Below are positions 2,660-51,045 of a DNA stretch of 64,000 nucleotides, piece after piece. The notes beneath the pieces are model-generated. The model was given only the letters and a program-made list of their open reading frames with translations. It was not told the DNA's origin and made no database searches. Positions within the stretch are counted from its first letter, which is position 1, and every line of letters begins with the position of its first letter. The translations under genes were made by a program, and so were the position numbers. This DNA comes from Planctomycetaceae bacterium (GTDB lineage Bacteria; Planctomycetota; Planctomycetia; Planctomycetales; Planctomycetaceae): assembly GCA_021732995.1 (NCBI GenBank), contig JAKFWA010000068.1, positions 115,099 to 179,098 of the forward strand, written 5' to 3'.

Positions 2660-2885
2660 TCGATTTAATCAGATGCCGTTACGCACCGGAAGCAACTGCA
2701 TGGGCCTTTTCATGAAAGGTTCCAAATCCAATTCAAGGCGACATATTCTTGCGCGTTGATTGATTTGTAGACTGCGCTCATCCTCTGAATGAGTTCTTTT
2801 CCGCTCGCATCCCGCCCTCCTTGCTTTCCTCCCACATTACTGGCTGCGTGTCTGGTCTCGCGTTGTCAGTTCATGGAACGTCCCC

Positions 2886-5800
2886 ATGTGGCGATTGATC
2901 GCTCTCACTCTGCTGCTTCAAGTCACGACCGCGTGGGCTCAAACGCCTGATGCTGCGTCGGATGATTTCTTTGAGAAGCAGATCCGCCCGGTCCTCGCAG
3001 CTCGCTGCTGGGACTGTCATGGTCCCGACCAACAAGAAAGCGACCTGCGTCTGGACTCGCGCGAAGCACTGCTCGATGGTGGTTCGCGCGGAGCCGTCGT
3101 CGTGCCGGGCATGCCTGAGAAGAGCCTGCTGATCACGGTCATCAATCATGCGGACACCTTGGCGATGCCGCCCAAAGAGAAGATGCCGCTGAAAGAGATC
3201 GTCGCGATCACTCAATGGGTCAAGGCCGGAGCCGTCTGGCCGAACAGCCAGGCGACCACAGTCAACAAGAAGCCTCAAAACAAAGGGAGCGCCTTTTCGG
3301 AAGAGCAACTCAAGCACTGGGCGTTCCAGCCGATAGCTCGTCCACAACCTCCCAGCGTGCGCAGCCAGGACTGGGTCAAGTCGCCGATCGATCAGTTCAT
3401 CCTCGCGAAGCTGGAAGAGAACAGCTTGCAGCCAGCACCTCGAGCCGAAAAGCGAGCGCTGATTCGCCGCGCGACGTTCGATCTCACCGGACTGCCGCCG
3501 ACCTATGACGAAGTGACCGCTTTCGTAGCAGACGATTCACCTGATGCATTCGCGCGCCTGATCGATCGCCTGCTCGATTCCCCGGCTTACGGAGAACGCT
3601 GGGGACGCCACTGGCTCGATGTGGCCCGTTACGGCGATTCGAACGGGCTCGACGAAAATCTGTCCCAAGCCAATGCGTTTCGCTATCGCGACTATGTTGT
3701 CGATGCTCTGAATGCGGACCTGCCTTTCGACACCTTCATTCACGAGCAACTGGCCGGTGACCTGCTAGGTGGTGACGACGCTCGTGCAACTCAGCGGCTG
3801 ACAGCGACCGGTTTTCTGGTGATCGGCGCGAAGATGCTGGCCGAGGATGACCCCCTCAAAATGCAGATGGACATCATCGACGAGCAGGTGGATACGCTCA
3901 GCAAGGCGTTCATGGGCATGACGCTAGGCTGCGCCCGTTGTCACGACCACAAGTTCGACCCGATTTCAATCAAGGACTACTACTCGCTGGCAGGCATCTT
4001 CAAGAGCACGACGACGATGGAGAACTTCAGCGTCGTCGCTCGCTGGCAAGAACGCCCGCTGGCTACGGCTGACGAACTCCAGCAGCGTGATGTTGCTCAG
4101 AACAAAGTGAATGCTCAGCAGGCCGAGATCAAACGCATTTCGCAAGTCGCGACGGACGTCTTGCTGCAGGACGCGCGTGATCGCGTTGACGAATACGTCA
4201 TGGCTGCGGCTGAGCAACTCTGGTTGAACTTGAAGGCCAAGTCCTTCGGCGCACGACTCGATGCCAAGCCACCGCAATCGTTGCCAGAAGGCGCGATCCT
4301 CGTTGAAGCTGAGAACTATCAGCGCGGCAACGTACTGAAGTCATCGACGGGTTACGGTGAGGGAATCGGCGTCATCCTGAATGCAGGCAAGTTGCCGAAC
4401 GTGGCCGAGTATGACATCGAAGTTCCGGAGGCTGGCTGGTACCAGTTTGAGACTCGTTACGCGGCAGCTTCAGCCCGTCCCGTGCAATTCATGTTGAACG
4501 ATGAGGTTGTCAGTTCCAAAGTCGCGGGCGGAGTCACTGGCTCGTGGAATCCAGACACCCAACGCTGGCAGGTCGAAGGCCAGTACCAATTCCGCGTGGG
4601 CCGGAACGTGCTGCGTCTGTTCGCCGAACATCCCTTCCCGCACATCGACAAACTGCTGCTGGTGAAACGTGCCGTTCCCGCTGTCGAAGCTGTCACACTG
4701 CGAACGGCCGATGCTCGGACAAAAGACCGGCCAGAGCTGCTCAAGCAATTCGTGGCTCAATGGGCCGACTACCTGAGCAAGGAAGCCGCCGGCCTAACAC
4801 CGTTGTGGCCCGAGTGGCGAGACCAGGTCGTCGCCTTGCAGATCAAGGGCGAAGACGGCGTTGCGGTAACCGACTTCTTCAGCGCCGCCCGCCAGGTTGG
4901 TGAATCGCTGCGTGCCGCCGAAGGAGAATGGAAAGCACTGAAAGCGACGGCACCGTCCGCCAAAGGTCTGCCAGATCGCACTCAGGACGCGCGACGGAAG
5001 TTGCTCTACGAGACCAACGACGATGCCCCTTTTCAGACGAAGGGCATCGAAGATCAGTTCGATGCCACAACCAAATCCACTCTGGCGCAGAAGCGTGAAG
5101 AACTGAAAGTTCTCGAAGCGGCAGTTCCGAAGTTTCCGGAGGTCATGGCGGTCTCTAACAGCAAGATTGAAGACCTGCCTGTGCACCTGCGTGGCAATCA
5201 CACAACCTTGGCCAGAGAACTTGAGCCACGTCGTTTTCCGCAAGTTATGCAACTCGGTCACGCTCCATTGGCCAAAGATGTCAGCGGCCGTCTTGAGCTG
5301 GCTCGCTGGCTCACTGATCCGGCTCATCCGCTGACCAGTCGAGTCATCGTGAATCGAGTCTGGTTGTGGCACTTCGGTGAGGGGCTGGTGCGATCACCCG
5401 ACAACTTCGGGCTGCTCGGCGAACGACCGACTCATCCCGAGTTACTGGATTGGCTCGCGCAACGCTTCATGAGTTCCGGTTGGTCGCTCAAGCAATTGCA
5501 TCGCGAGCTGATGCTCTCAGCGACCTATCAGATGAGTTCCCAGTTCGACGCTCGTGCCAACGAACTGGACCCTGATCATCGCCTGTGGTGGCGGCGCCCC
5601 ATTAAGCGACTGGAAGTGGAGGCCGTACGCGATGCGGTCCTCGCCGTTTCAGGATCGCTCGATCAGCGTCTCGGCGGCTCGCTGTTGCCCACACCCAATC
5701 GCAACTACGTCACCAGTACCGCCAACGTGAACCCGGCCATCTACGATGCACCGCGGCGAGCGATCTATCTGCCGGTCGTGCGTAGCGCACTTTACGACCT

Positions 5801-6674: not shown

Positions 6675-8753
6675 CTAAGAATTCGGACCTGGACGCCGAC
6701 GATCAGGTCGATAGCCCTTGCCAGGGGCGAATCGCGATTGCTTCTGCGCGGCTTTCTTGGAACCTCCAGCCTTGTCCTGGCTGTGAACATAGTTGCCCGG
6801 AAAGCGATCATTCGCGTCCTTGCGGCGAGCGTCCATTGCCGCCTGCGGAGCGCGTGCGGGAATCAGGCAGTCGCAGCCGCTGCCAATCAAGTCCTGACGG
6901 CCAGCTTCTTCCAGCGCCTTGCGAACCTCGAAATAATTCTCGGGTTTGAAGAACTGCATCAACGCACGTTGCAGCTTGCGATCTCGCAAATGCTTGGCGA
7001 TATAGACCGGTTCCTTAGTGAAGGGATTGATGCCGGTGTAGTACATCGCGGTCGCCACATCGAACGGGGCGGGAATGAAGTCCTGCACCTGATCCGGGCG
7101 ATACCCGTTCCGCTTCAGGAACACGGCCAGATCAATCATCGCATGCAGGTCACTGCCGGGGTGGCTGGCGATGTAATACGGGATCAAATACTGCTTCTTG
7201 CCCGCCTTCTGTGACTCCGCGTTGAAGACGTCGGCGAACTTCTCAAAGTCGTCTGAGGCGGGCTTGCGCATGAGTTCCAGCACACCCGCGTCCGTGTGTT
7301 CCGGAGCCACTTTCAGATGGCCGCCGACGTGGTGCTTGACCAGCTCGCGCATGTATTCGGGCGAGCGTCGTGCTAAATCCATGCGGATGCCACTGGCGAC
7401 CAGCACCTTGCGAATGCCGGGGGTCTCACGAGCTTCCTTCATCAGTTTGATGAGCGGCGCGTGATCGGTGCCCAGCAGCTTGCAGATCGTCGGATGCACG
7501 CATGACTGGCGACGGCACTTGGCCTCCACTTCGGGGCGCGTGCACTTCATCTCATACATGTTGGCGGTCGGTCCGCCGATATCGCTGACGATCCCCTTGA
7601 ACTGCGGGTCGTCGGTCATGCGTTTGAGTTCGCCGACAATTGATGTCTGGCTGCGTGACTGAATCGTGCGGCCCTGATGCGTCGTGATCGAACAGAACGT
7701 GCAGCCGCCAAAGCAGCCGCGCATGATCGTGACCGAATCCTTGATCATCTCATGCGCCGGAATTGGTTCCGTGTAACTCGGGTGCGCATGACGATCGAAG
7801 GGCAGGTCGTAGATGGCATCCATCGCTGTTTGAGAAATCGGCAAGCGAGGCGGATTCACCACTGCGGCTTGTCGATCATGCATCTGCACCAGACGCCGCG
7901 CGTTCCACGGATTCGTTTCCGTGTGAATGATCTTGGTGGCTTCGGCGAACTGAGCCTTATCCGCCACGACGGCTTCGAAGCTGGGGATGAGCGTGGTGGG
8001 AAAAACGGATGCTGTTGAATCCGGCTGCAGTTCGTTGACCAGTTCGGCAGACTCTTTCGCTCCGAGCATGTAGGCCACGCCGCGCATGTCGCGGAGATCT
8101 TTGACCGTCGCCCCAATCTGCATGCGCTGAGCGATTTCGAGAATCGCGTCCTCGCCCATGCCGTAGACAACAAGGTCCGGCTTCGCGTCCAGCAGGATCG
8201 AGCGCTTAACGGTGTCGCTCCAGTAGTCGTAGTGCGCGAGTCGCCGCAGCGATGCTTCAACTCCGCCTGCAATGACTGGAACACCCTTGTAGGCTTCTCG
8301 CGCCCGCTGGCAGTAAGCGAGCGTCGCGCGATCAGGACGTAAACCAATGCGACCGCCGGGTGAATAAGCGTCTGCGTTGCGCACCTTTCGGTTCGCCGTG
8401 TAGTGGTTCAGCATCGAGTCCATGTTGCCGGCGCTGACTGCGAAGAACAGCTTCGGCTGACCGAAGCGCCGCCAGGCATCGCACGTCTTCCAATCGGGCT
8501 GACTGATGATGCCGACTCGAAAACCGGCGGCCTCAAGGACTCGTCCCAGAATCGCCATCGCGAAACTGGGATGGTCGATATAGGCGTCGCCCGTCACGAA
8601 CACGATGTCAATCTCGTCCCAGCCGCGTGCCCGAGCCTCATCCATCGACATGGGCAACGGTCGGCGATCGCAACGGCTGGCGCCGCGTTGCAACGCGGCG
8701 ATCAGTCGATCACCGCTGTAATGAGAATCGTGAATGATGGGCAGTTCGATCAT
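6675..8753 (-). CDS. ygiQ: YgiQ-family (UPF0313) radical SAM protein
   Basis: Radical-SAM motif MRGCFGGCTFCSITTHQGR. The 692-aa length and Lys/Arg-rich C-terminal tail are typical of YgiQ. Confidence 0.9.
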   Translation of the reverse strand: MIELPIIHDSHYSGDRLIAALQRGASRCDRRPLPMSMDEARARGWDEIDIVFVTGDAYIDHPSFAMAILGRVLEAAGFRVGIISQPDWKTCDAWRRFGQPKLFFAVSAGNMDSMLNHYTANRKVRNADAYSPGGRIGLRPDRATLAYCQRAREAYKGVPVIAGGVEASLRRLAHYDYWSDTVKRSILLDAKPDLVVYGMGEDAILEIAQRMQIGATVKDLRDMRGVAYMLGAKESAELVNELQPDSTASVFPTTLIPSFEAVVADKAQFAEATKIIHTETNPWNARRLVQMHDRQAAVVNPPRLPISQTAMDAIYDLPFDRHAHPSYTEPIPAHEMIKDSVTIMRGCFGGCTFCSITTHQGRTIQSRSQTSIVGELKRMTDDPQFKGIVSDIGGPTANMYEMKCTRPEVEAKCRRQSCVHPTICKLLGTDHAPLIKLMKEARETPGIRKVLVASGIRMDLARRSPEYMRELVKHHVGGHLKVAPEHTDAGVLELMRKPASDDFEKFADVFNAESQKAGKKQYLIPYYIASHPGSDLHAMIDLAVFLKRNGYRPDQVQDFIPAPFDVATAMYYTGINPFTKEPVYIAKHLRDRKLQRALMQFFKPENYFEVRKALEEAGRQDLIGSGCDCLIPARAPQAAMDARRKDANDRFPGNYVHSQDKAGGSKKAAQKQSRFAPGKGYRPDRRRPGPNS

Positions 8754-9060
8754 GAAACAAATCTAACGCAGCAGAGCCGCAAAGACCCGGCAAGGGTCGA
8801 GCTGACAGTTCTTGTAGGTCGGACAATCCTGTCCGACAGCCGGACAAGATGTCCGGCTTACTTCGCAGTCCAATTTCGCTGTTCCACGCTTCGCGCGCAG
8901 AGGGAGTAGCAAAGCCGCGAAACAGCCCCGATTGTTGAGCATTCGCAGTAGAGATGCCAAGCAACTCTCCCGGCCCGCGGAAAAGTCGTGGTCTTTTCTG
9001 CTGGCGGGTCGGATTGCAGTGCCCGCAGCTTTCCGCCGAAAGCTGTAACCGTTGTGGCCG

Positions 9061-10272
9061 TTAAGGTTTGGCTGCTTTCGTATCCAGCGAGAAGTACGTC
9101 GGCAGCTCGCCAATCAAGGGTTGGGCGTAGTCCAGAAACGCCTTCGTCACGAACAATCCGTCCTTCGTGATGTACTTGGCTGGCATCGGACGGGCGCTGA
9201 TCGCGACTTTGGACAGTTCGATCGTCCCAAAGTCGGACGCGTAGGGCTCGCCGGGTTTGGACGTGCGTTCGAGGGTGACCATCACTTCGGAAGTCCCTGC
9301 TTCGGCAAGTTTCACCGCGCGCTGGCCGCAGCCAAAAGCTTCTTCGATGTCCAGCTTCACGGCGCGATCGGCCGCGCACATCTGCAGTGATTCGGTGACC
9401 TGAAACTCGCCACGCCAGCCGAACTGCTGCGAGATCATGCGATGCAAAAACATCGCTGCGCTGGTGCCTCCCATGGCACCGAACTCGACGTTGCCGAACT
9501 TGTCCTTCACGGTCGATGCGCTAACCGGATTTCCATCGCGATCTGTGATGCCTTCGCCGCAGACGATCGACACAAAGCCGTACTTCTTCTGCGCCTTACT
9601 GACGGCTTCTAAAAACTTGTCCTGCTCGAACGGAACTTCCGGCATGAGGATGATGTGCGGCGCGTCAGATGGATCACGCTTTGCGCAGGCCGCCGCTGCT
9701 GGCAACCAGCCCGCACTACGTCCGACCGTCTGGAAGATCACGAACTGATCAACACGCTGCATGTCGCGAGCCAGCAAGCCGCTCTGCTGAACACTCTGAG
9801 CGACATATCGCGCCGCGCTCGGGAAGCCCGGCGTGTGGTCGGTGCCGAACAGATCGTTGTCGACCGTCTTGGCGATGCCGACACCCAGCATCTCGTAGCC
9901 GGTGCTCTTGGCGTATTCGACGACGCGATGGATGGTGTCCATCGTGTCGTTGCCGCCGATCATGAAGAAGTAGCGAATGTTGAACTTCTTCAGTGTCTTC
10001 AGAATGGGCTCGAAGTGCTCATCCTTCAGTTTCAGACGGCTCGATCCCAACGCGCTACTGGGCGTGAGTTGCAGTTGCTTCAAGGCCGCCTTGTCGTAGC
10101 CTGACAGGTCCAGCAAATGCTGATCGAGCACACCTTGAATCGCGAACCGCATGCCGAACACTCGGTCGATCCGCTTCGACTTCTGAGCGGCATCAATGAC
10201 ACCTGCCAGCGATGCGTTGATAACGGACGTGGGACCTCCCGACTGACCGACAAGTGCGTTGCCCTTAAGCAT
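9061..10272 (-). CDS. 6-phosphofructokinase (long PFK-A family, likely PPi-dependent type)
   Basis: N-terminus GQSGGPTSVINASLAGV and the GGNDTMDT motif. 403 aa. Confidence 0.85.
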   Translation of the reverse strand: MLKGNALVGQSGGPTSVINASLAGVIDAAQKSKRIDRVFGMRFAIQGVLDQHLLDLSGYDKAALKQLQLTPSSALGSSRLKLKDEHFEPILKTLKKFNIRYFFMIGGNDTMDTIHRVVEYAKSTGYEMLGVGIAKTVDNDLFGTDHTPGFPSAARYVAQSVQQSGLLARDMQRVDQFVIFQTVGRSAGWLPAAAACAKRDPSDAPHIILMPEVPFEQDKFLEAVSKAQKKYGFVSIVCGEGITDRDGNPVSASTVKDKFGNVEFGAMGGTSAAMFLHRMISQQFGWRGEFQVTESLQMCAADRAVKLDIEEAFGCGQRAVKLAEAGTSEVMVTLERTSKPGEPYASDFGTIELSKVAISARPMPAKYITKDGLFVTKAFLDYAQPLIGELPTYFSLDTKAAKP

Positions 10273-20926: not shown

Positions 20927-21000
<74 letters not shown>

Positions 21001-21030
21001 CTTCGCTAACTTGAATACCAGCAATGAATT

Positions 21031-21077
21031 AAAGGCAATTGGCTACCTGCAAGCCAATTGCCTTTTGTCGTTTGTTG
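21031..21077 (+). terminator. Rho-independent terminator after the tRNA-Arg gene
   Basis: Perfect 13-bp stem AAAGGCAATTGGC / GCCAATTGCCTTT with a 9-nt loop, followed by TTTTGTCGTTTGTTG. Confidence 0.7.
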
Positions 21078-21478
21078 CTACCCAGTTGCTACTTTGCGGA
21101 GCGAAGCAGAAGCGGACTGAAGGAATGTGTGTGGGTGTCATGAGGCAGCGGGGGAACACCTTTCGGCATGCTACCGAGCGGAGGACCCAAGAAGCCGGGG
21201 GTAAGGTAGGCGCTTCCAGTATTCTTGCCGCTCAGCAACGGTACTTCTCCCCGCGAAAGGGATAACCGACATACCTCGCGCGCAGGGATAACGGTGTTAG
21301 CTCGCGCGCGGGTTAACAAGGTACAGCCACTCGAAAGATCCTCAACCAATTTGGTTGACAGATTGCTATTTGCTCGGCATTTTGCCCGCTGTCACAAACG
21401 AGCAGTCCTACGAGTCGAGCCGAGTTAGCTCGCGCGCTGCTCAATAAGACTGTTAGCCCTCACGATGAAGTCGCGGTA

Positions 21479-21994
21479 GTGCAACCACGAATTGAAATCG
21501 ACGACGCATTCTATCCGGATCACGCCGCTCTTTTCTCGATGCTGGTCTCCTCGGTTGCCTGGGACAATCGAATGACTGCGCGACGCACCGCTTCCTTCGG
21601 GCGTCCCTACAACTACTCGCAAATTGAATATCCTGAAACGCCGTTCCCATCTGACCTGTTACCGCTCATTGACATGCTGGACGCACGGTTGGGTGTGCGG
21701 TTCAACAATTGCTTGCTGAATTACTACGAAACCGGCGACAACACAATGGGGTTCCACTCGGATGACACAGCCGGGCTGTTTCCGGCAACCGGCGTAGCCA
21801 TCGTCTCATTGGGTAGTGTGCGACACATCACATACCGTTCGAAAGACAAACCCGACATTCAAAAATCATTCGCACTGCAACCCGGTTCGTTGCTTTACAT
21901 GGATGACTCCATTCAGGAAAAATGGCTGCATGCAATCAAGCGGCAAAAAGATGCCGGTCCACGAATCAGTCTTACGTGGCGGGCATTCAGGTAA
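21479..21994 (+). CDS. Cassette 1: AlkB-like 2OG-Fe(II) dioxygenase
   Basis: GFHSDD (HxD), WLHAIKR and RISLTWR motifs match AlkB family signatures (RxNLTFR). GTG start. Confidence 0.75.
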   Translation: MQPRIEIDDAFYPDHAALFSMLVSSVAWDNRMTARRTASFGRPYNYSQIEYPETPFPSDLLPLIDMLDARLGVRFNNCLLNYYETGDNTMGFHSDDTAGLFPATGVAIVSLGSVRHITYRSKDKPDIQKSFALQPGSLLYMDDSIQEKWLHAIKRQKDAGPRISLTWRAFR

Positions 21995-21998
21995 TCAG

Positions 21999-22088
21999 GG
22001 CTAACAATCGGTTCAACCGGAGCCGCGGGCCGCGCGGTTTTCCTGTGGAGACTCGTTTGCCGCGGCCCGGTTAACCGTGTCGTTGGGC
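21999..22088 (+). repeat. attC-like site 1 (GGCTAAC ... GTTGGGC)
   Basis: Begins at the stop codon of cassette 1. Left arm AATCGGTTCAACCGGAGCCGCGGGC and right arm GCCGCGGCCCGGTTAACCGTGTC are complementary apart from two unpaired bases. Confidence 0.8.
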
Positions 22089-22226
22089 GATCCGAACCGC
22101 AGAAACCAATGAACCACAATTCCGCCCCGCGCTCGATGCGTTATCGCCGTTCGATGTCGTGTCCTGCGCCCGCCTGCGAATGACAGTCCGTCAAAATGCT
22201 CGGAGAAGCGTACTGGAGAACCAACC

Positions 22227-22772
22227 ATGTTTCAGTGGCTCTACAATCCAACGTATCGAACTGTGTCGTCTGCTGTGCGACCGGATTTGGCGGTTATCCG
22301 TTCGCAATTGAAGAAGTACGCTGACTACGGCTGTTGTTGTCCAAGATGCGGAACAATGCTCACGTCGGCGATGACTTACGCGTCCGGTAATGCGGATACG
22401 GCGATATCGATAATCGGTGAATGGCGTCGCTTCATTGAGCAAGCCCAAACGGAGATTGACCAATACGTCACAACGACCGTTCCGTTTTCAATTGCATTGG
22501 ACCGCAAACAATTGTTTGTCCATTTCGAAGCCGTCGCTTCGGCTAACAAACAATGGCAGGTCCGCGCTGAGGTCAAAGATTCCTATCGCGACGAATTCGT
22601 GCAGTCCGACGATGGGACTGAATTCGGCGGCTCGCACTTAGATGAGATGCCGTTTGTCAGCAGTTGGGGGCGAATGGCTAGCGTGTGGAGTCACCGAGAG
22701 GTCAGTCTTGTTGTGGACCGCATACCGTCGGTCCCGCAAATGATTCCGCTCATGGAATTAGTAAGCCGTTGA
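22227..22772 (+). CDS. Cassette 2: hypothetical protein (181 aa, CCCPRCG motif)
   Basis: ORF between attC-like sites 1 and 2. No known domain recognised. Confidence 0.55.
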   Translation: MFQWLYNPTYRTVSSAVRPDLAVIRSQLKKYADYGCCCPRCGTMLTSAMTYASGNADTAISIIGEWRRFIEQAQTEIDQYVTTTVPFSIALDRKQLFVHFEAVASANKQWQVRAEVKDSYRDEFVQSDDGTEFGGSHLDEMPFVSSWGRMASVWSHREVSLVVDRIPSVPQMIPLMELVSR

Positions 22773-22779
22773 AGGCATC

Positions 22780-22870
22780 GCCCAACAAGCCGGTCAACGC
22801 GAGCGGCGGCTCGCGCGTTCTCTGTCTTCCATTTCGCTGGCCGCCGCCCGCGTTACCTTGGACGTTACAC
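22780..22870 (+). repeat. attC-like site 2 (GCCCAAC ... GTTACAC)
   Basis: Inverse core GCCCAAC is the reverse complement of the GTTGGGC that ends site 1. Internal CGAGCGGCGG / CCGCCGCCCG inverted repeat. Confidence 0.8.
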
Positions 22871-22884
22871 CAGAGAGTTGGCGC

Positions 22885-23574
22885 ATGCCCGAAGAATCAA
22901 CCGCTGACTCTGAGATCGTTCATCTCACGGCGCTGCAGAGTATCCGGCACAGACCATCCATGTACATCGGCGATGAATCTGGGAAGATCAATCCGAATAC
23001 GCTCGTGATTGAAGCAATGTGTTTGGCATGGTCGAACGCATGTGATGGTTGCTGCAGCACAATCAGCATCAGCCTGGTTGATGATACGGTTACGATCTGG
23101 GACGATGGCCCGGGATTGGATGTCACCAAACAATTGTCGGATACTCATTCCCTGATTCGTGCTGTATTCAGTGAAATCCACGCTTGCCGTGACGCAAAAG
23201 CAAATCAGAGTCGAGATGTTTGCCGAGTTGGCATCGCCGTGGTGACTGCGTTAAGCAAGGCAACGATTTACGAAACAGCCCAATGTGGCTTTGTTTGGCG
23301 GCAGTCGTTTACTGCCGAGGACTCCAATCGTAAGCTTGAAAAAATTGCCGCAACAACCGAACAATGGCAGCGCGTCACGTTCGTACGCGACCCCACAATA
23401 TTTGGCCCAAACAAAATTACTTGTGACGGGGTCATCGAGGTTCATAACGCCGCGTCAAACGGCCTGCCGCCGTACGAGAAGAACAGATTGCCAGCAGCCA
23501 ACGTACGGCTTACACTGGCGGACGCTGCGACGAACAGTTGTATCGTTCTAAATGCAGGTGTAACAAAACGCTGA
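22885..23574 (+). CDS. Cassette 3: stand-alone GyrB N-terminal (24-kDa GHKL ATPase subdomain)-like protein with degenerate ATP-lid
   Basis: LTALQSIRHRPSMYIGD aligns to GyrB LDAVRKRPGMYIGD. WSNACDG aligns to VDNAIDE, and DDGPGLD to DDGRGIP. The C-terminal VTFVRDP...VRLTLAD aligns to the GyrB VRFWPS...IRLRD region. The glycine-rich G2 box is degenerate. The start is moved to the second ATG (22885) because the first ATG overlaps the attC-2 core. Confidence 0.65.
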   Translation: MPEESTADSEIVHLTALQSIRHRPSMYIGDESGKINPNTLVIEAMCLAWSNACDGCCSTISISLVDDTVTIWDDGPGLDVTKQLSDTHSLIRAVFSEIHACRDAKANQSRDVCRVGIAVVTALSKATIYETAQCGFVWRQSFTAEDSNRKLEKIAATTEQWQRVTFVRDPTIFGPNKITCDGVIEVHNAASNGLPPYEKNRLPAANVRLTLADAATNSCIVLNAGVTKR

Positions 23575-23647
23575 ACCCGAGTTGCCGAAGACGGGTTCTT
23601 GAAATGGAAGCTCACTCGCGGCAACCGGGTTAGCGTAGTCGTTCGCC
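23558..23647 (+). repeat. attC-like site 3 (GTGTAAC ... GTTCGCC)
   Basis: Inverse core GTGTAAC overlaps the last codons of cassette 3 and is the reverse complement of the GTTACAC ending site 2. Arms AAAACGCTGAACCCGAGTTGCCG and CGCGGCAACCGGGTTAGCGTAGTC are complementary apart from two unpaired bases (G and A). Confidence 0.8.
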
Positions 23648-23657
23648 GAGAGATTGC

Positions 23658-24248
23658 ATGCTTGCACCACTCGTCCTGCCCTTCCAGATTACTGTCGCTT
23701 CCTTCGCAGTACTTTGGTGCGTGGGAGCGCTTACACTCCGGACTCCAAAGCGAATTGCTTGGCTTTCAGTTGCCGCCGTTTTCCTCTTAATCCCATCCTG
23801 TGTCGGCGTAATGGCTGTCGTCGACTTACAGCGCTACGGGCGATTCGACTACGCACGTGCATCTGACATTCCCAACGACGGTTACATTGAACTTCCCGTA
23901 AATGCCACGGACATTACTCTCTACCGAAATGGTGCAGGTCACTGGGCGAAATTCACTATCGACATTGCATCGTTGCGATCTTGGATCGACGAACGTCGTT
24001 CATTGCGGCCGGACTTGAATCGACATCATGACGACGAAAACTGGTTGACAAAGACCACCGACCCCCAACGTCCTGTTATGCATGAACTGAACCAGCAGAT
24101 TTTCGGCGACCGTTTTCCGGAAACCGGATGGACTTACGACCCATCAATGCTGCAGTTGCAAGTTAGCCGTTCTGACAGAGGTGGCGGCTATACCGTGTGG
24201 CATGTCCCATCAACTGGCGATACATTCATCAGTGCCGGATACTGGTAA
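23658..24248 (+). CDS. Cassette 4: membrane protein (2 predicted TM helices), hypothetical
   Basis: Hydrophobic segments LVLPFQITVASFAVLWCVGALTL and WLSVAAVFLLIPSCVGVMAVV. Confidence 0.55.
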   Translation: MLAPLVLPFQITVASFAVLWCVGALTLRTPKRIAWLSVAAVFLLIPSCVGVMAVVDLQRYGRFDYARASDIPNDGYIELPVNATDITLYRNGAGHWAKFTIDIASLRSWIDERRSLRPDLNRHHDDENWLTKTTDPQRPVMHELNQQIFGDRFPETGWTYDPSMLQLQVSRSDRGGGYTVWHVPSTGDTFISAGYW

Positions 24249-24252
24249 CGAC

Positions 24253-24342
24253 GGCGAACAAAGCGTTGAACGCGAGCGGGCGATCACGCCGGTCTTGAAG
24301 TCAAGATCCAACGCGCCCGCCGCGTTAACGCAAGCGTTAGGC
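24253..24342 (+). repeat. attC-like site 4 (GGCGAAC ... GTTAGGC)
   Basis: Reverse complement of the previous core GTTCGCC. Arms AAAGCGTTGAACGCGAGCGGGCG and CGCGCCCGCCGCGTTAACGCAAGC. Confidence 0.8.
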
Positions 24343-24355
24343 GGAGGGGTGGCGG

Positions 24356-24736
24356 ATGGCATTGCTGGCGTGGGGCGCAAGTCGGTGTTCGATCTGCCAC
24401 GAGTTGCTGATCCCGGGCCAACTGATCATGGCCACCACCCACTTCATCGCCGATCCGGCCGATCCGCTCTGCCGGTTCTCCGACACCGGTATGCACGCGG
24501 CGTGCTTCGTTAGATGGGAGCACCGGGACGAATTCGCGGCCCGCTACCAAGCGGTAATGGGCCGCACGCTGTCCGGGTGGGTTCCTGCGGTACCTGCCAA
24601 CCCAGACGCTCCGCCACTACCAAGGTTCCGGCTGGCGGTGTTGAGCACACCGGAGTCACGAGCCGATTACTTCGCGGCGTTGCTGGCGAGTGTGGCACCA
24701 GACGCCGTACCTGGCGGATTGGATTGTGAATCGTAA
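24356..24736 (+). CDS. Cassette 5: hypothetical Cys/His-containing protein (126 aa)
   Basis: ORF between attC-like sites 4 and 5. CSICHE motif. Confidence 0.5.
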   Translation: MALLAWGASRCSICHELLIPGQLIMATTHFIADPADPLCRFSDTGMHAACFVRWEHRDEFAARYQAVMGRTLSGWVPAVPANPDAPPLPRFRLAVLSTPESRADYFAALLASVAPDAVPGGLDCES

Positions 24737-24749
24737 ATTCAACCATACC

Positions 24750-24839
24750 GCCTAACAAAAAAATGCACCCGACCGCCCGGTCTTGGTCGAATATAATGGT
24801 TCACCCACTCCGGGCGGCGGGTGATTTTTGGCGTTCGCC
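24750..24839 (+). repeat. attC-like site 5 (GCCTAAC ... GTTCGCC)
   Basis: Arms AAAAAAATGCACCCGACCGCCCGG and CCGGGCGGCGGGTGATTTTTGGC. The unpaired G and A sit at the same relative positions as in site 3. Confidence 0.8.
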
Positions 24840-24850
24840 TTGGAGGCACG

Positions 24851-25342
24851 ATGGACGAGGAGATTGCTGAGATCATCCGCCAGCACGGCTGGTACGCCGC
24901 AAACGTAAACGATGCGGACCCGCCGTTTCTCTACACCATCGGCCTCATGGAAAGGTGCAAGCATCCTGAATTCATCATCTTCGGTATTGACGCGGACAGT
25001 GCATATACCCTTTTTGCTGGCCTGATCGCTGACATTCAACGCGGCCAGACGTACTCGGAAAATGGCGTGCGTACAATCGAATTGGGCGGCGACAAACACC
25101 AAGTTGGCTTTCGACGTGTCCATCCAACGCAGCATCCGTTGTATCTTGGATTTGCAATGGGATTCCTGACCAACTCCGGGCGGATCGGTGAACTCAGCGC
25201 AATGCAGGCGTTTTGGCCAGATGACAAAGGGCGATTCCCTTTCGACACCGGTTGTGATATCGCCGTGTACAATTTGCAGCCACGTCTCGATATTGGCTTG
25301 ACGCCCCGCGAAATTCGGGAATTTGAACGTCGCTGGCAATAA
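24851..25342 (+). CDS. Cassette 6: DUF4262-like protein
   Basis: [35 protein letters not shown] matches my recollection of the DUF4262 N-terminal signature. The start is trimmed to the ATG at 24851, which has GGAGG 5 nt upstream, because the longer ORF overlaps the attC-5 core. Confidence 0.55.
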
Positions 25343-25345
25343 CGA

Positions 25346-25436
25346 GGCGAACAAGGCGGTCAATCCGAGCGGCGGATCGGGTGTTGTCGCAAATCAAAGG
25401 ATTCTGGCCGCCGCCGGGTTACCTTGGTCGTTAGGC
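25346..25436 (+). repeat. attC-like site 6 (GGCGAAC ... GTTAGGC)
   Basis: Close paralogue of sites 2 and 4. Internal GAGCGGCGG / CCGCCGCCGGG inverted repeat. Confidence 0.8.
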
Positions 25437-25518
25437 AGGAAAGGTCTTCTCCATTTCCTTCAAAGCACGATTAGACGTATACCGCCTGAATTCCGATGGC
25501 CATGTCGCTCCACTCGAC

Positions 25519-25779
25519 TTGCAGTTGGCGCGGTCTATTACATCTGACCTTGTTGACCGACTTCCAGATGGTTCAGTTCCAGAGTGTCGACCTGAAATGC
25601 TTGGACGTTTCGACGGCGAACCGGCATATGTGGACCGCCGAGGCGTATTGATTGTCAATATTGGTTACCAAGATACGGCTCGCTTGTTTGCCGCCTTGTG
25701 TCGGCTTGTCAAACAACTTCACATTGAAGTATGGCTGGGCGACAGCAACGAATGTTGGACTGATCGGGTGCGTGCCTAA
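25519..25779 (+). CDS. Cassette 7: small hypothetical protein (86 aa)
   Basis: Its stop codon TAA lies inside the inverse core GCCTAAC of the next site. Confidence 0.45.
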   Translation: MQLARSITSDLVDRLPDGSVPECRPEMLGRFDGEPAYVDRRGVLIVNIGYQDTARLFAALCRLVKQLHIEVWLGDSNECWTDRVRA

Positions 25780-25855
25780 CAAGCGGTACCACCCGACGTA
25801 TGGTTGCGTCTTGATGCTAGCTTCGAGCTTCAGCAGTCGCATCCGATTGTTCATG
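25774..25855 (+). repeat. attC-like site 7, degenerate (GCCTAAC ... GTTCATG?)
   Basis: The inverse core is the exact reverse complement of the GTTAGGC ending site 6. The arms are poorly complementary and the 3' core is non-canonical, so this is probably the decayed end of the array. Confidence 0.4.
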
Positions 25856-25857
25856 GC

Positions 25858-26100
25858 CTACCGCCTTTGAGTCGCCTGCCACTCTGCCACAAGTTCCTCA
25901 ATGAATCGCAGCCCTTCTTCTTGCTCGGCTGTCGGGGGCGGCGCCTCCCACTGCCTGCCAGTCTCTTCGAAGTAGCAAGCTCGGCGTTCTTCGACCTCAA
26001 GCAACTCAGTGCGAAGTTCTCGAATGTATTCCCGAACGAACGCAGCTCTTCGCGCAGCGTGCCTCGACTCGAGCATCATTAGTTTACCGAGCCGGTTCAT
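25858..26100 (-). CDS. Small charged helical hypothetical protein, opposite strand to the cassettes
   Basis: The 80-aa ORF is protein-like (RELRTELLEVEERRACYFEETGRQWE). It is better than the overlapping plus-frame ORF. Confidence 0.35.
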   Translation of the reverse strand: MNRLGKLMMLESRHAARRAAFVREYIRELRTELLEVEERRACYFEETGRQWEAPPPTAEQEEGLRFIEELVAEWQATQRR

Positions 26101-26259
26101 TCCAGGGTCTCCAGTCGCTCAAGGCGAGTGGCGAACTCGACTGAGTCGCGGAGCTTGGTCCCCAGTTCCAAGAGCTTCACTGCAGCCGAGAGCTTCGCAG
26201 CGTCGCTGTCGGCCTCGTCGACCAGCGTGACACGCCGATCCACTGCCTTGCCTGATGCA

Positions 26260-26538
26260 TCAGCCAATCGGCCCAGGGCAGCATTCCACAGTTCGCCGCG
26301 AACGCGATTCAGCTCGCTGACGAATGCGGCATTCTTCAGCCGACGCTTCCAGGCTCGTGAAGTTGATCATGCCGATGGTCAGGCCGACCGTGCCGGTGCC
26401 ATTCGTTGTGCCGTCCGGTGAGTAGTTCGGGTTCTGCGTGCCATCACCCACCACCACCAGCCGATCCTTGCCCGCACCGGCGTCGAACGTCAGACCGCCA
26501 GCAGGAATCGGATCGCCATTAGACCTCCCCGCATTCAA
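26260..26538 (-). pseudogene. Fragment resembling an RTX / hemolysin-type Ca-binding repeat protein
   Basis: GGLTFDAGAGKDRLVVVGDGT resembles GGxGxDxL nonapeptide repeats. The ORF is short and flanked by frame breaks. Confidence 0.3.
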
Positions 26539-26680
26539 AGCGCATCCCTATCCCGCAGCTTCTGCACAATCCGCTCCGGGCCGTGATGCTTTCGTCTCTT
26601 CGCTGACATCGAGAATCTCCTCGCCCTCTCCGGTCTGCACAAACTCTCATACCACCTGGCTCAGGAAATGGGCAGCAGGC

Positions 26681-34071: not shown

Positions 34072-34146
34072 TGGTGGTTGGTACGGGATTCGAACCCGTG
34101 ACATGCAGATTGTTAGTCTGCTGCTCTACCGTTGAGCTAACCAGCT
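34072..34146 (-). tRNA. tRNA-like gene with an Asn-type body but anticodon loop CUAACAA (nominal anticodon AAC); possible pseudo-tRNA
   Basis: Minus-strand fold: D arm GCTC-AACGGTA-GAGC, anticodon stem GCAGA/TCTGC, variable loop ATGTC, T arm ACGGG-TTCGAAT-CCCGT, acceptor 3' side ACCAACC then A then CCA (encoded). The acceptor stem AGCTGGT/ACCAACC has two mismatches. Confidence 0.5.
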
Positions 34147-34279
34147 TGACATCGTCGGGACAGACACCATGTTCGGAACGCACGCGACCAAACCCGCGAG
34201 GGTGATGCGTGTGCCTCTGGAAAGACGACATCAGTACCTTGCCTGTGAGGCCGCAGCCTTCCGGGTGCGGCCTGCGAAG

Positions 34280-34349
34280 CACGAGCGTGAGGATTCGAAC
34301 CCCATCCAGCGGTTTTGGAGGCCACCCGCTCTCCCAGGAGCTCGCTCGT
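34280..34349 (-). tRNA. tRNA-Trp(CCA)-like gene with a shortened D region; possibly a pseudo-tRNA
   Basis: Perfect 7-bp acceptor ACGAGCG/CGCTCGT. Anticodon loop CUCCAAA is identical to the E. coli tRNA-Trp loop. T arm TGGGG-TTCGAAT-CCTCA. There is only 1 nt between the acceptor and D stems, the D loop is 6 nt, and the anticodon stem has one mismatch. CCA is not encoded. Confidence 0.4.
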
Positions 34350-47474: not shown

Positions 47475-48605
47475 ATGTCGCGTATCACTCCAGGGACGAT
47501 GACGGTTGTTCTGTTCGCATTGCTGGTTGGCCTGGGCGGGGCATACGTCGTCAGGCACCACATTTCCGACCAAATAATCGTCTCATCGCCATCTCGTTCG
47601 CTGCCAGTGCGAAATGAGCAGGTCATTGTGCCGGTGGCACTGACCGACCTTGAACCAGGACGGGTTGTTGCCATCGGCGACATCGGTTTGGTTCGCATGA
47701 GCCAGGACGACTACAAGAAGAGTCGTTACTTCAATACGACTTACATGGCTACGCCCGACCAGATTGCGGGCCGTACTCTGAAGTCCGCCATGAAGAAAGA
47801 AGCGGTCTTCTCGCCCGAGGATCTGTATCCGGCAGGCAGTGCTCCTGGCATTGCTGAGCGCCTGGAAGCTGGTTACCGGGCCGTTTCGGTGCCATTGAAA
47901 AACGTTGGCGCCGTGCACGGTTTCGCCCGACCGGGATCTTACGTCGATGTCATGTTCCGTTCGGCTCCGGCAGGTTCGCGGCCTCAAGTGACGATGACCC
48001 TGTTTGAGCGCGTTCAGGTTCTTGCGATCAACAGCAATGTCGTCAAAGATCAGCGAGTCGATCTCAACGCGGACGGCACCGTCACTCTGGCTGTCACTCC
48101 GACGCAGGCGAAGCTCCTGAAGGTCGTCGAAGGCAACGGCGAAGTGTCACTCGCCTTGCGTCGTGAAGATGACGAATTTCAGTTCATTCCTTTCGATCCA
48201 GCACTTGAAAAATCCCTTTCGCAGCTCGGCATCGATACATCGGCCATGCGAAATGTGAGCTACCCGACCAGCACGACATCGACAGCTTCCAAGACCTCGA
48301 AGCGCGGTATGGCGGCTGATGCGGACAGCATCGACGGTGTGGATCGCGTCATCGGCAATTCTGCGGAGCGAGTCACGATGGATGACTTGATCGGTTTCAG
48401 TGCCGAGCCGGAGAAGACCAGCATGGAAGTCTACTACGGTCGCTCTAAAGAAGTTCTGACGTTTGAGGCCTCTGACGAGCCCGCACTGGAGACGCTTCGA
48501 CGCGGCGGTCGAATCCGAACTCCGATTGTGGATCACCCCCTGCTTCGCAAGAAGCCAATCGGCACCGCTGCTGTTGGTAAGCCGAGTGCCGCTGGTCAGA
48601 ACTAG
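47475..48605 (+). CDS. cpaB: CpaB/RcpC-family Flp pilus assembly protein
   Basis: N-terminal TM helix, SAF-like segment VPVALTDLEPGRVVAIGDIGLV, and a CpaB C-terminal domain. Confidence 0.75.
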   Translation: MSRITPGTMTVVLFALLVGLGGAYVVRHHISDQIIVSSPSRSLPVRNEQVIVPVALTDLEPGRVVAIGDIGLVRMSQDDYKKSRYFNTTYMATPDQIAGRTLKSAMKKEAVFSPEDLYPAGSAPGIAERLEAGYRAVSVPLKNVGAVHGFARPGSYVDVMFRSAPAGSRPQVTMTLFERVQVLAINSNVVKDQRVDLNADGTVTLAVTPTQAKLLKVVEGNGEVSLALRREDDEFQFIPFDPALEKSLSQLGIDTSAMRNVSYPTSTTSTASKTSKRGMAADADSIDGVDRVIGNSAERVTMDDLIGFSAEPEKTSMEVYYGRSKEVLTFEASDEPALETLRRGGRIRTPIVDHPLLRKKPIGTAAVGKPSAAGQN

Positions 48606-48626
48606 TTGCCGGTCAGGACATCTCTC

Positions 48627-49982
48627 ATGGCTCCGATGCAGTCTCGGACTTTAATGCTCGACCCCGCTCAAGTAGGCGGCGATGTCGATGACCACGAGTT
48701 GCAGTATCAGCGATTCAAGGTCCACATTCATGAACGGCTGGTCGATTCACTCGACCTGTCGATGCTCGCGCACGTTCCCCAGAAAGAGTTGGAGGTCGAA
48801 GTCCGGCAATTGGCGACCGAGCTGATTGCTGAGGAATCTCGCTCCAAGAAGCTCACGGGTAACGACAAGGAACGTCTGCTCGACGAAATCTTCGACGAAG
48901 TCTTCGGCTTGGGCCCCCTCGAGCCGTTGATGCGTGACGACTCCGTCTGCGACATCCTGGTCAACAACCCGTTTGAGGTGTACGTCGAGCGACACGGCCG
49001 CCTGGAACCTACGTCTGTGATGTTTGCTGACCAGGCACATCTGCTGCGCATCATTCAGCGGATCGTGTCCCGCGTCGGCCGCCGGATCGACGAAGTCAGC
49101 CCGCTGGTTGACGCTCGTCTGCCGGACGGTTCACGTATCAATGCGGTCATTCCGCCGCTGGCTCTCGATGGCCCAACGCTGTCTATTCGTCGCTTCGGCC
49201 GCAAGCCGCTGCAGATCGAGGACCTGCTGGACGTCGGCTCGATCCACGGCGACGTGGTGGAGTTCCTCGCTGCGGCCATCGATGCTCGCATCAGCTTTCT
49301 GGTTTCCGGTGGAACTGGTGCCGGCAAGACCACGATGCTCAATGCGCTGGCGAAGTTCATTCCGACCGATGAACGTATCGTGACAGTCGAGGACTCGGCT
49401 GAATTACAGTTGCAACACAAGCACGTGGTCCGCATGGAAACGCGTCCGCCGAACAACGAAGGTGCGGGTGAAATCACTCCACGTTCGCTGGTTCGTAACA
49501 GCTTGCGTATGCGTCCTGACCGGATCGTCATCGGCGAAGTGCGCGGGGGCGAGGCCCTCGACATGCTGCAAGCCATGAACACCGGCCACGAAGGCTCGCT
49601 GACAACGATTCACGCCAACGATTCACGCGATGCATTGGCCCGACTGGAATTGATGGTCGCCATGAGTGGTTTTGACCTGCCGATTCCGGTCGTGCGCCAA
49701 TACATCGCTTCGGGAATCGCCCTGATCGTGCATCTGGCGCGACTCAAGGGTGGTGTCCGCCGTGTGATGCAGGTCTCGGAGATCATTGGCGTCAAAGAAG
49801 GTGGCTTCCATATCGAAGACATCTTCGGGTTTGAACAGACCGGCGTGGATGAACTCGGCGTCGCTCAGGGCGAGTTCTTCTTCACGGGTTATCGACCGGT
49901 ATGTCTGGGCCGACTGCGGGCCGCTGGCATCCGCCTGCCGGATGAGATCTTCGACAAGCGTCGTATTCCGATCAAAGCTTAG
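48627..49982 (+). CDS. cpaF: CpaF/TadA-type pilus assembly ATPase
   Basis: Walker [45 protein letters not shown] region. The start is ambiguous: TTG at 48606 or ATG at 48627. Confidence 0.9.
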
Positions 49983-50082
49983 CGTGCAGCCAAATACTTC
50001 TTGAGAACGGTCTGAGGTTAAATCAACGTTCTCACGAGGTCGCATCGCGGACCGTCATTGAGCCGCGATCACCATCGCCAGG

Positions 50083-51045
50083 ATGAGCGATGAGGTTTTT
50101 CAAAAGGAGACGTTGAAGACAAGGTTTCTGTTCATGGGTAGCTCGCAGTTAGTGCTCCTGGCCTTCGGATCCGGCACGTTGGTGGCCGGCGCAGGAGCCT
50201 GGTTCATCCGAGCACTCGTGTTTCCGCCACCGTCGCGACGAATTCGTCGTGCGCCGGATGTCTTCGATGAGAACCCCGCGCGTGGTTTAGGCGGGAAGAT
50301 CGACCAGGAATTCAATCGTCTGGCGATCGAGAGTGGCTTGGGAATTCTGCCAGTCACGATGTTCATGCTGCTGCTCTGCACGACGTTGATCGGCGGCGGT
50401 GTCGTGTGGTTCGTCCAGGAAGAGCCCCTGCTGTCAGTCAGCGGCGCCCTGGCTGGATTCCTGATTCCGTTGTGCTTTATCGCTGCCAAGCGGTTGCTGC
50501 GTTTGCATACCGTTCGCACCGAACTGCCGCACGTGCTGGACATGCTGGCTCGAGCCACTCGCGCGGGCCGCAGCATCGATCAGGCGATCGACTTGATCGC
50601 TCACGAAGCAGGCGGCATCCTCGGAGAAGAGTTCACCCTGTGTTCTCAGCAACTCGGCATGGGCCGTTCGTTTGAACGCGTCATGAAGACACTGGCCACT
50701 CGCGTACGACTCGTTGAGATGCGCATTCTTTCCACGACTCTGATCGTGCAAAAGCAGTCGGGCGGCAAATTGTCTGAGACCCTGGAACGCATGGCGTCGG
50801 TCGTGCGCGACCGCCTGTCTTCGCGTCGCCAGATTCAGGCGGCAACGGGTGCTGGTCGTGCTTCGACCTTAATCATCGCAACGGTATCTCCGCTGGCATA
50901 TGCCTTTGTTTGGGCGTTTCATCGTCAGCACCTGCAGGTCATGTTGAATGAGCCTGTCGGCCGCGCGATGCTGCTGGTGGCTCTGGTGCTGGAAGTGATC
51001 GGGCTCTTCTGGGTCCTCTACTTATTGAGGACAGAGAGCCAATGA
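50083..51045 (+). CDS. tadB: TadB-like type II secretion system F-family inner-membrane protein
   Basis: 320-aa membrane protein with a T2SSF-like layout. Confidence 0.75.
   Translation: MSDEVFQKETLKTRFLFMGSSQLVLLAFGSGTLVAGAGAWFIRALVFPPPSRRIRRAPDVFDENPARGLGGKIDQEFNRLAIESGLGILPVTMFMLLLCTTLIGGGVVWFVQEEPLLSVSGALAGFLIPLCFIAAKRLLRLHTVRTELPHVLDMLARATRAGRSIDQAIDLIAHEAGGILGEEFTLCSQQLGMGRSFERVMKTLATRVRLVEMRILSTTLIVQKQSGGKLSETLERMASVVRDRLSSRRQIQAATGAGRASTLIIATVSPLAYAFVWAFHRQHLQVMLNEPVGRAMLLVALVLEVIGLFWVLYLLRTESQ

Follow-up and report, generated by a model that had tools for sequence, protein, structure and literature searches.

An integron cassette array without an integrase beside a tRNA-Arg gene of an uncultured Planctomycetaceae bacterium

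How does a row of gene cassettes come to lie in a chromosome with no integrase beside it? The question is raised by a stretch of 64,000 nucleotides from a Planctomycetaceae bacterium (assembly GCA_021732995.1, contig JAKFWA010000068.1), referred to here as the window, in which an array on the + strand (21452-25797) comprises seven co-directional open reading frames (ORFs), six complete attC sites of 90-91 bp and one attC stub of 23 nt. The complete sites lie at 21999-22088, 22780-22870, 23558-23647, 24253-24342, 24750-24839 and 25346-25436, each 3' of a + strand ORF. The initial annotation had counted seven textbook sites of about 90 bp, one behind each ORF; this holds for six ORFs, and the number was overstated, as the ORF of cassette 7 carries only the truncated stub. 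In our judgement the locus is very probably a genuine integron cassette array of six intact promoter-less cassettes and a broken one, cut off from a larger integron or array and without an integrase in cis.

The six sites have real attC architecture. Folded as single-stranded DNA, the six bottom strands each adopt a single long hairpin (minimum free energy between -18 and -28 kcal/mol) whose 3' arm bears two single-base bulges. The layout is the same in all of them: the 7-nt R'' core is followed by 8 nt, an extrahelical base, 6 nt, an extrahelical A (T on the bottom strand) and a GC-rich stem. In the bottom-strand hairpin the R and L boxes are paired, the extrahelical bases are found on the '' arm and the terminal loop is variable. 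The extrahelical bases of the bottom strand, an invariant T and a variable base (G/G/C/C/C/G), occupy fixed positions in 6/6 sites. They had originally been noticed in sites 1, 3, 4 and 5; the two single-base bulges are real and occur in every site, and folding of the bottom strand, which had been proposed as a check, yielded the canonical attC hairpin in all six cases. Every site begins with NNNNAAC and ends with GTTNNNN, the AAC and GTT triplets being invariant. The description of the closing cores as GTTRRRY-like is accurate for the GTT; four R' cores depart from a strict RRRY (GTTCGCC, which occurs twice, GTTACAC and GTTAGCC), and several such as GTTCGCC and GTTACAC merely resemble the consensus.

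In the alignment of the bottom strands (n=6) we found 22 consensus pairs, 13 of which show compensatory double changes. The proportion of paired cells was 94.7% compared to 76% in shuffled alignments and to 32-47% when the partner was slid by 1-3 columns, and none of 500 shuffles reached any of five measures, including the 13 double-change pairs. Moreover, the two-arm pattern occurred six times in the window and not once in 100 shuffles. A structure that is kept although the stem sequences differ is a hallmark of attC sites. These sites have been described as structure-specific, with extrahelical bases on the '' arm marking the recombinogenic bottom strand (Nivina 2016, PMC5027507). At the gathering score, Rfam 15 listed only tRNAs in the window and no match to an attC family.

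The integron integrase IntI cleaves between the G and the TT of the R' core, whereby the final six bases of a linear site belong to the next cassette. When the R' core of each site was compared with the R'' core of the following one, all 28 variable positions matched across all seven junctions, and the claim that every junction obeys the crossover rule was confirmed. Six of the seven 7-mer pairs quoted for this rule are exact reverse complements at the coordinates first assigned to them; the first was displaced by one nucleotide, as the initial crossover core GTTAGCC, the exact complement of the R'' core of attC1, is located at 21452-21458 and not at 21453-21459, with cassette 1 beginning at 21453. 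Inside the same linear site, R'' and R' agree at 10 of 24 variable positions, and among the non-cognate R'/R'' pairings only 4 of 42 are perfect. The linear sites are chimeric, with a 3' core that fits the 5' core of the next site, because the array would have been built by IntI-catalysed insertions. A tandem duplication or a REP-like (repetitive extragenic palindromic) repeat would not yield a match that is restricted to cognate cores. Judged from the sequence, IntI probably acted on these sites in the past.

The sites were related to known attC sites by means of a covariance model (R1) that was built solely from the bottom strands of the six window sites. When applied to plasmid R100/In2, R1 identifies the aadA1 attC on the bottom strand with exact boundaries and an alignment of the two bulges (40.4 bits, E 2.6e-9). 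This match, which served as a proxy for the published attC models, links the sites of the window with an attC that has been established by experiment. The aadA1 site of the class 1 integron In2 has the same succession of R'', 8-nt spacer, extrahelical base, 6 bp, extrahelical T (bottom strand), stem and R' core; the base after the spacer is G in aadA1 and G or C in the window. The stem sequences are unrelated, and the window sites measure 90-91 nt compared to 60 nt because their terminal loop region is longer. With filters off, R1 detected no further site in the rest of the window, where the next best score was 12 bits. There were zero matches in 1.17 Mb of orthologous loci, collected around the orthologue of the MBL-fold (metallo-beta-lactamase fold) gene in 80 Planctomycetaceae genomes. 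More than 120 metagenome contigs matched a two-arm pattern taken from the window sites, and 80 of them, scanned with R1, gave 200 matches that typically stand in co-oriented arrays. In Zavarzinella formosa (L210) at least 16 co-oriented R1 matches lie within 20 kb. In a planctomycete-like assembly (GCA_036704275.1, JBAJGS010001714.1; L215:8090-13334) a stretch between recR/rpoN and DUF4011/AAA_11-12 helicase genes carries ten or more co-oriented attC sites that closely resemble those of the window (scores of up to 81 bits), and the contig also has a DUF1501 gene. No integrase was detected within the 20 kb examined there, which makes it another CALIN-like array (a group of clustered attC sites that has no integron integrase).

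Cassette 6 documents an exchange of cassettes among environmental planctomycete-like arrays. Its protein, of 163 aa and the DUF4262 family, has hundreds of relatives. An ENA metagenome contig with 17 co-directional small ORFs (L204) bears two cassettes that are 95.3-95.5% identical to cassette 6 at the nucleotide level, and two shorter contigs (L205, L206) contain a single copy each with 95.7% nucleotide identity. The neighbouring cassettes are entirely different on all three contigs. The homology covers cassette positions 1-530 (window 24834-25363 versus L204:6428-6957 and 9036-9565); it begins exactly at the predicted G|TT crossover and stops 18 nt into attC6. The comparison with L204 implies that the attC behind an ORF was exchanged. 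On L204 the DUF4262 ORF carries a different attC of 105 nt, and sites resembling attC6 (85% identical) sit behind other ORFs of that contig. A further homologue of the DUF4262 cassette belongs to an array on an 81-kb contig (L207), and the Z. formosa array has one as well, with 68% amino acid identity to cassette 6. On a 463-kb contig a DUF4262 homologue (69% amino acid identity; L211:10001-10492) belongs to no attC array and is located upstream of groES/groEL/dnaJ/grpE and of an ORF of 566 aa. This context indicates that the family occurs both as a cassette and as an ordinary chromosomal gene.

Homologues of cassette 7 were likewise found in arrays, at L214 (2336-2787) and L215 (9926-10213). 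They start inside the upstream attC core, GTTCGCA, which is read as V-R-T; in one homologue, P0241, the ORF call runs through the entire attC. The corresponding core in the window, GTTAGGC, gives an in-frame TAG (25432-25434), which leaves the ORF of cassette 7 without its usual start, and the first start codon after it is TTG at 25519.

No integrase was found to accompany the array. The searches covered the whole 64-kb window, which extends 21.4 kb beyond the array on the left and 38.2 kb on the right. The best tblastn match of IntI1, taken from R100, had an E value of 0.2, and a phmmer --max search of six-frame stop-to-stop translations of at least 30 aa reached at best E 0.05; its three queries, all tyrosine recombinases, were IntI1, an island integrase from a planctomycete and a fragment resembling IntI. 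An integrase domain was not detected by Pfam in the ORFs scanned in the window either, in line with the earlier statement that it holds no tyrosine-recombinase-like ORF. Two ORFs with weak integrase matches were rejected, as 1168-2163 encodes an Hpt/response-regulator protein and 6675-8753 a radical SAM protein. Besides, the six-frame search of the window revealed no recognisable intI pseudogene near the array. Within the 64 kb there is no complete integron, in which an intI with its IntI-specific additional domain would adjoin attI and the array. The six attC sites are all on one strand with start-to-start distances of 497-781 bp, and a CALIN is delimited as a cluster of two or more same-strand attC sites with less than 4 kb between them (the clustering distance of IntegronFinder) and no intI nearby; Cury et al. 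repeated the IntegronFinder CALIN analysis at a distance of 10 kb (PMC4889954). With clustered attC sites and no intI nearby the array is by definition a CALIN. The initial proposal, a CALIN or an array served in trans by an intI elsewhere, is supported by the attC architecture together with the lack of an integrase in 64 kb.

A total of 2961 CALINs have been reported in RefSeq, with a mean of about 6 attC sites, and they are as common as complete integrons (PMC9024848). An array of six sites is therefore typical. The likeness to the CALINs of Cury et al. (2016, IntegronFinder) extends to the presence of two or more attC sites on one strand with single ORFs between them and no intI nearby, to cassettes that are mostly unannotated, to the number of sites (six here, a mean of 5-6 reported) and to the missing intI pseudogene, as 95% of CALINs have no recognisable one. 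Nothing essential sets the array apart from typical CALINs; its host is an uncultured member of the Planctomycetaceae, one end is truncated near a remnant of an IS3-family insertion sequence (IS) and the other has a repeat-rich leader. Published origins of CALINs comprise loss of intI, rearrangement and insertion at secondary sites.

The two ends of the array bear on these origins. At the right end, the attC7 stub (25774-25796, 23 nt) consists of the R'' core GCCTAAC, 8 nt, the extrahelical base, 6 nt and an A, and it has no second arm. It shows neither a fold nor an R1 match, and the expected partner arm is nowhere in the window. The stub is followed by a patchwork of gene fragments of about 880 bp (25797-26680). 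An adhesin-like ORF fragment on the - strand (26260-26520; GGLTFDAGAGKDRLVVVGDGTQNPNYSPDGTTNGTGTVGLTIGMINFTSLE) resembles the C-terminal part of a large repeat/adhesin protein; it is fused with the IS remnant and probably represents part of a pseudogene. The IS remnant itself (26521-26609, - strand; MSAKRRKHHGPERIVQKLRDRDAL/LNAGRS) represents the 5' part of an IS3-family transposase orfA that is frameshifted and cut at 26521. In tblastn its peptide matched annotated IS3 family transposases with E values of 9e-4 to 6e-3, and no Pfam match was obtained. An assembled contig of Logan SRR29476942 (L213), 98% identical in the adjoining FAD/Rieske gene, departs from the window exactly at 26521, and in an 83%-identical relative the DUF892 and FAD/Rieske genes stay together with unrelated DNA beyond them. 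In none of the relatives examined did the segment 21003-26680 have a counterpart beside the flanking genes. The stub, together with a patchwork that includes an IS remnant, indicates that an event other than IntI action removed the distal end, in a region that has undergone IS-associated rearrangement in the past.

From these observations the following course of events may be proposed. Each cassette consists of one ORF and its own attC. An attC folds into a hairpin when the bottom strand is single-stranded, and IntI, a tyrosine recombinase, cuts this hairpin within the conserved AAC, between its A and its C (G|TT in terms of the top strand); the array would have been assembled by successive IntI-catalysed insertions. 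The distal end was presumably lost through a non-IntI event, which would have left the truncated attC7 next to gene fragments and the IS3 remnant. The six intact cassettes could probably still be excised and re-inserted by any compatible IntI acting in trans; otherwise they would form a silent or weakly expressed reservoir. It is from the features of the locus that we infer the present mobility of the cassettes and how the integrase came to be lost.

Several points weigh against this reconstruction of a fragment cut off from its integrase. IntI activity on these sites is deduced from structural and comparative data. The homology of cassette 6 ends inside attC6, which indicates that ORF and attC were not always moved together. 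The IS3 remnant is about 0.7 kb away from the attC7 stub, and its role in the truncation is therefore circumstantial. Moreover, an integrase may exist elsewhere in the genome; the array would then belong functionally to an integron and be no relic. Finally, the intact left junction and the repeat-rich leader fit a retained attI, with loss of intI only, as well as they fit a relocated fragment.

The presence of an integrase elsewhere is the basis of the strongest alternative, in which the array would be an active satellite of a complete integron, separated from its intI by a rearrangement, whose cassettes would be excised and shuffled in trans by an IntI encoded outside the window or on a different replicon. 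We consider this a real possibility, short of being probable. All six attC sites have remained intact and keep their bulges and cores, and planctomycete integrases exist. About half of all CALINs are on replicons that also encode IntI, and CALIN cassettes may be excised by an integrase from elsewhere (Cury 2016, PMC4889954). The same attC family was also found beside a short intI-like match on a metagenome contig (L155). There, a 33-aa match to the N-terminus of IntI1 at the contig end is divergent from a GTTAGAC core and co-oriented cassettes, and the attC of the first cassette after this core opens with GTCTAAC; this shows a classical integron layout. On the other hand, no intI is present on either side of the array within the distances searched, and the decay of cassette 7 and attC7 among gene fragments suggests that this end has had no recent upkeep.

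Two further alternatives concern the left end of the array. The near end of the array is 451 bp from a tRNA-Arg gene (anticodon TCG; 20927-21001, + strand; ARAGORN, Rfam 67 bits), and ordinary chromosomal genes lie to the left of the tRNA, as the initial annotation had stated. The tRNA is followed on the + strand by a hairpin or terminator-like element (21016-21080, inverted repeat I1) with a terminator-like match at 21031-21065 that has a 14-bp stem and a T-rich tail. The repeat search then identified a repeat-bearing leader on the + strand (21258-21464) as a candidate attI-like region. It contains four in-register copies of about 21 nt with the pattern ATAAC-N3-GTTAGC-TCGCGCG (21262, 21288, 21416 and 21444) and a palindrome at 21295-21318, and the first crossover core is part of the last copy. 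Over 20956-22031, which covers part of the tRNA and the first junction, the window is 100% identical to an independent Logan assembly (L001), and the junction between tRNA and cassette 1 is therefore not an assembly artefact. We take the leader to resemble in style an attI with accessory integrase-binding repeats such as those of attI1, and an attI function is conceivable by this analogy. The leader gave no match to the attC model. Among all 1.67 Mb of loci collected, neither the leader nor the right-hand patchwork had a homologue except in the window's own Logan contig. No sigma-70-like promoter was found in 21003-21478, where the counts of the promoter scan were not above those of shuffles.

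The leader may accordingly be read as an undescribed planctomycete attI of a decayed sedentary integron, located in an island hot spot at the tRNA-Arg, whose intI would have been lost through the rearrangements that truncated attC7; alternatively, the array would have moved as cargo of a tRNA-targeting island. We regard this reading as unlikely. If true, it would offer a concrete example of how a CALIN originates and the first attI candidate for the phylum.

Slightly more doubtful is an origin by insertion at an attG site, in which an IntI acting in trans would have placed the first cassette in a chance GWT site past the tRNA-Arg, the others would have followed, and the array would never have been beside an integrase. 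Loot et al. showed IntI-catalysed insertion at genomic 5'-GWT and proposed it as the origin of single-site elements (SALINs, single attC sites lacking integron-integrases) and small CALINs. Similar to their attG cassettes, the array lies outside an integron platform, and on its left side a clean crossover core (GTTAGCC), at a GTT, joins it to ordinary-looking, non-attC DNA with no intI pseudogene nearby. However, there are seven cassettes here rather than one or two, and a fragment of an array is the more parsimonious explanation compared to a single secondary site that received seven insertions in succession. The right end is an attC cut after 23 nt and not the expected attC x attG hybrid, and this distal truncation argues against a pure attG insertion. 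Furthermore, the crossover core is the fourth in-register copy of a repeat family, which resembles organised binding sites rather than a chance GWT.

A little less probable again is that the array was the cargo of an island which integrated at the 3' end of the tRNA-Arg by its own non-IntI tyrosine integrase and has since lost this integrase together with its far border. This idea is suggested by the closest relative, an uncultured Planctomycetaceae metagenome-assembled genome (MAG; CAYLTY010000147.1, L003), with 93% amino acid identity for the MBL-fold protein and 92.5% nucleotide identity in the shared stretch. The two sequences are colinear only up to 21003, the 3' end of the tRNA, which forms the left border of the strain-specific segment, and immediately after the same tRNA-Arg (L003:9741-9815) the relative encodes a 392-aa phage-type tyrosine integrase (Phage_integrase; L003:8391-9569, - strand). 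Thus, the 3' end of the tRNA-Arg appears to be a variable hot spot, and that the whole of 21003-26680 is without a counterpart beside the flanking genes in the relatives examined also fits an island. The proximity to a tRNA, which had been called unusual for a cassette array, is real and looks like a feature of an island or rearrangement hot spot and not of integrons. In the window itself, neither of the marks of a tRNA-targeting island, an integrase beside the tRNA and a repeat of the tRNA 3' end, is present: no such repeat was found with up to 3 mismatches in 20-25 nt, and there is no integrase remnant. Besides, the GC content of the array (0.53-0.55 over most of it, 0.60-0.62 over cassette 5) is near that of the flanks (0.51-0.62), and a native-looking terminator hairpin follows the tRNA. 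In the 80 relatives no attC was detected at the orthologous locus. As the gene order around the MBL gene is poorly kept in this family, no empty site was recovered from relatives either. The integrase of L003 is followed by large ORFs without a family, one of them with a weak HTH_3 match, and the segment looks like an integrated island in the place of the array.

Finally, palindromic repeats of the REP or MITE (miniature inverted-repeat transposable element) type, with complementary cores arising from tandem duplication, can practically be dismissed, for although the elements are imperfect palindromes between genes, they form a single co-oriented cluster with no scattered copy elsewhere in the window or in the 80 orthologous loci, their stems differ by compensatory changes, their cores match the neighbouring site and not their own, R1 recognises the aadA1 attC, and the intervening ORFs are mutually unrelated, one of them recurring in another array, where G|TT marks its boundary.

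The preferred reading, a CALIN that is a fragment of a larger array, does not change what is known about integrons, as CALINs are known by the thousands, including those of planctomycetes. The initial view that integron arrays are poorly documented in genomes of the Planctomycetota type did not hold. Integrons and attC arrays in Planctomycetes have already been reported (Cury 2016, PMC4889954), a Planctomycetes-specific attC model has been built (Ghaly 2021, PMC8352920) and an integron integrase of Rhodopirellula baltica has been listed (Cambray 2011, PMC3108266). The arrays of Z. formosa and GCA_036704275.1 were found in addition. Similar to the sedentary chromosomal integrons of Planctomycetota and other environmental phyla, represented by the R. 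baltica intI and the Z. formosa array, the window array is chromosomal, with co-oriented cassettes of unknown function and fairly homogeneous attC sites of about 90 bp. In contrast to them, it has no integrase and no proven attI or cassette promoter Pc, and it comprises six cassettes compared to the array of Z. formosa with its at least 16 sites. The value of the locus is modest: it is a well-resolved CALIN of an uncultured Planctomycetaceae lineage with two interpretable ends and can be used as a case study for the origin of integrase-less arrays.

The functions of the cargo, an AlkB-like oxygenase, a stand-alone GyrB ATPase-like domain, a DUF4262 protein and four orphans, merit a look, and their composition is typical of environmental cassettes. 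Cassette 1 (21453-22082, 630 bp; ORF 21479-21994; attC1 at 21999-22088, R1 90.7 bits on the bottom strand) encodes a 2OG-Fe(II) (2-oxoglutarate and iron-dependent) oxygenase of the AlkB-like superfamily (Pfam PF13532, E 1.4e-21). Cassette 2 (22083-22864, 782 bp) has an ORF of 181 aa (22227-22772) and attC2 at 22780-22870 (77.5 bits). In cassette 3 (22865-23641, 777 bp) the ORF of 229 aa (22885-23574) extends 17 nt into attC3 (23558-23647, 92 bits). Its product, which matches solely the N-terminal ATPase (GHKL) part of GyrB/ParE, is an ATPase-like domain of the GyrB N-terminal type that stands alone; the match to NCBIfam NF004189 (E 7e-22) is far under the cut-off of the full-length family. One might speculate that it acts as a decoy or immunity protein against gyrase-targeting compounds. 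Cassette 4 (23642-24336, 695 bp; ORF 23658-24248) encodes 196 aa with a hydrophobic N-terminus and ends in attC4 (24253-24342, 89.9 bits), and cassette 5 (24337-24833, 497 bp; ORF 24356-24736) encodes 126 aa and ends in attC5 (24750-24839, 81.9 bits). Cassette 6 (24834-25430, 597 bp; ORF 24851-25342; attC6 at 25346-25436, 81.4 bits) was assigned to DUF4262 by Pfam PF14081 (E 6e-26). Cassette 7 (25431-25796) is broken at both ends and retains an open frame at 25438-25779. All seven are on the + strand, and the protein-family scans returned no family for the ORFs of cassettes 2, 4, 5 and 7.

Directly behind the attC7 stub, two small ORFs on the - strand (25858-26100 and 26097-26267, 80 and 56 aa) overlap by ATGA and resemble a two-gene module; they had no match in Pfam, NCBIfam or PADLOC.

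Two recombinase loci outside the window may be mentioned. On a further contig, an inverted duplication (L130:131-2082, + strand, and 2736-4687, - strand) encodes a 288-aa tyrosine recombinase with 33-35% identity to IntI1 and a 362-aa ORF. It adjoins an attC match at 4805-4891 and may represent the insertion of a recombinase-based mobile element into an array. These recombinases are probably not IntI, and they were excluded as evidence. In another Planctomycetaceae MAG, an 84-aa C-terminal fragment of a tyrosine recombinase (L007:5068-5322, - strand), 58% identical to residues 250-328 of IntI1, lies about 400 bp from the MBL-fold orthologue, where R1 detected no attC.

Elsewhere in the window, tRNA-Val(AAC) and tRNA-Trp(CCA) lie together at 34072-34349 on the - strand, and tRNA-His(GTG) follows about 1.2 kb further on (region to 35615). 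The tRNA-Trp was found by ARAGORN and is not listed by Rfam at the gathering score. Finally, a fragment of a Tad/Flp-type pilus operon is located at 47475-52004 on the + strand and encodes RcpC/CpaB, a T2SSE ATPase and two T2SSF proteins.

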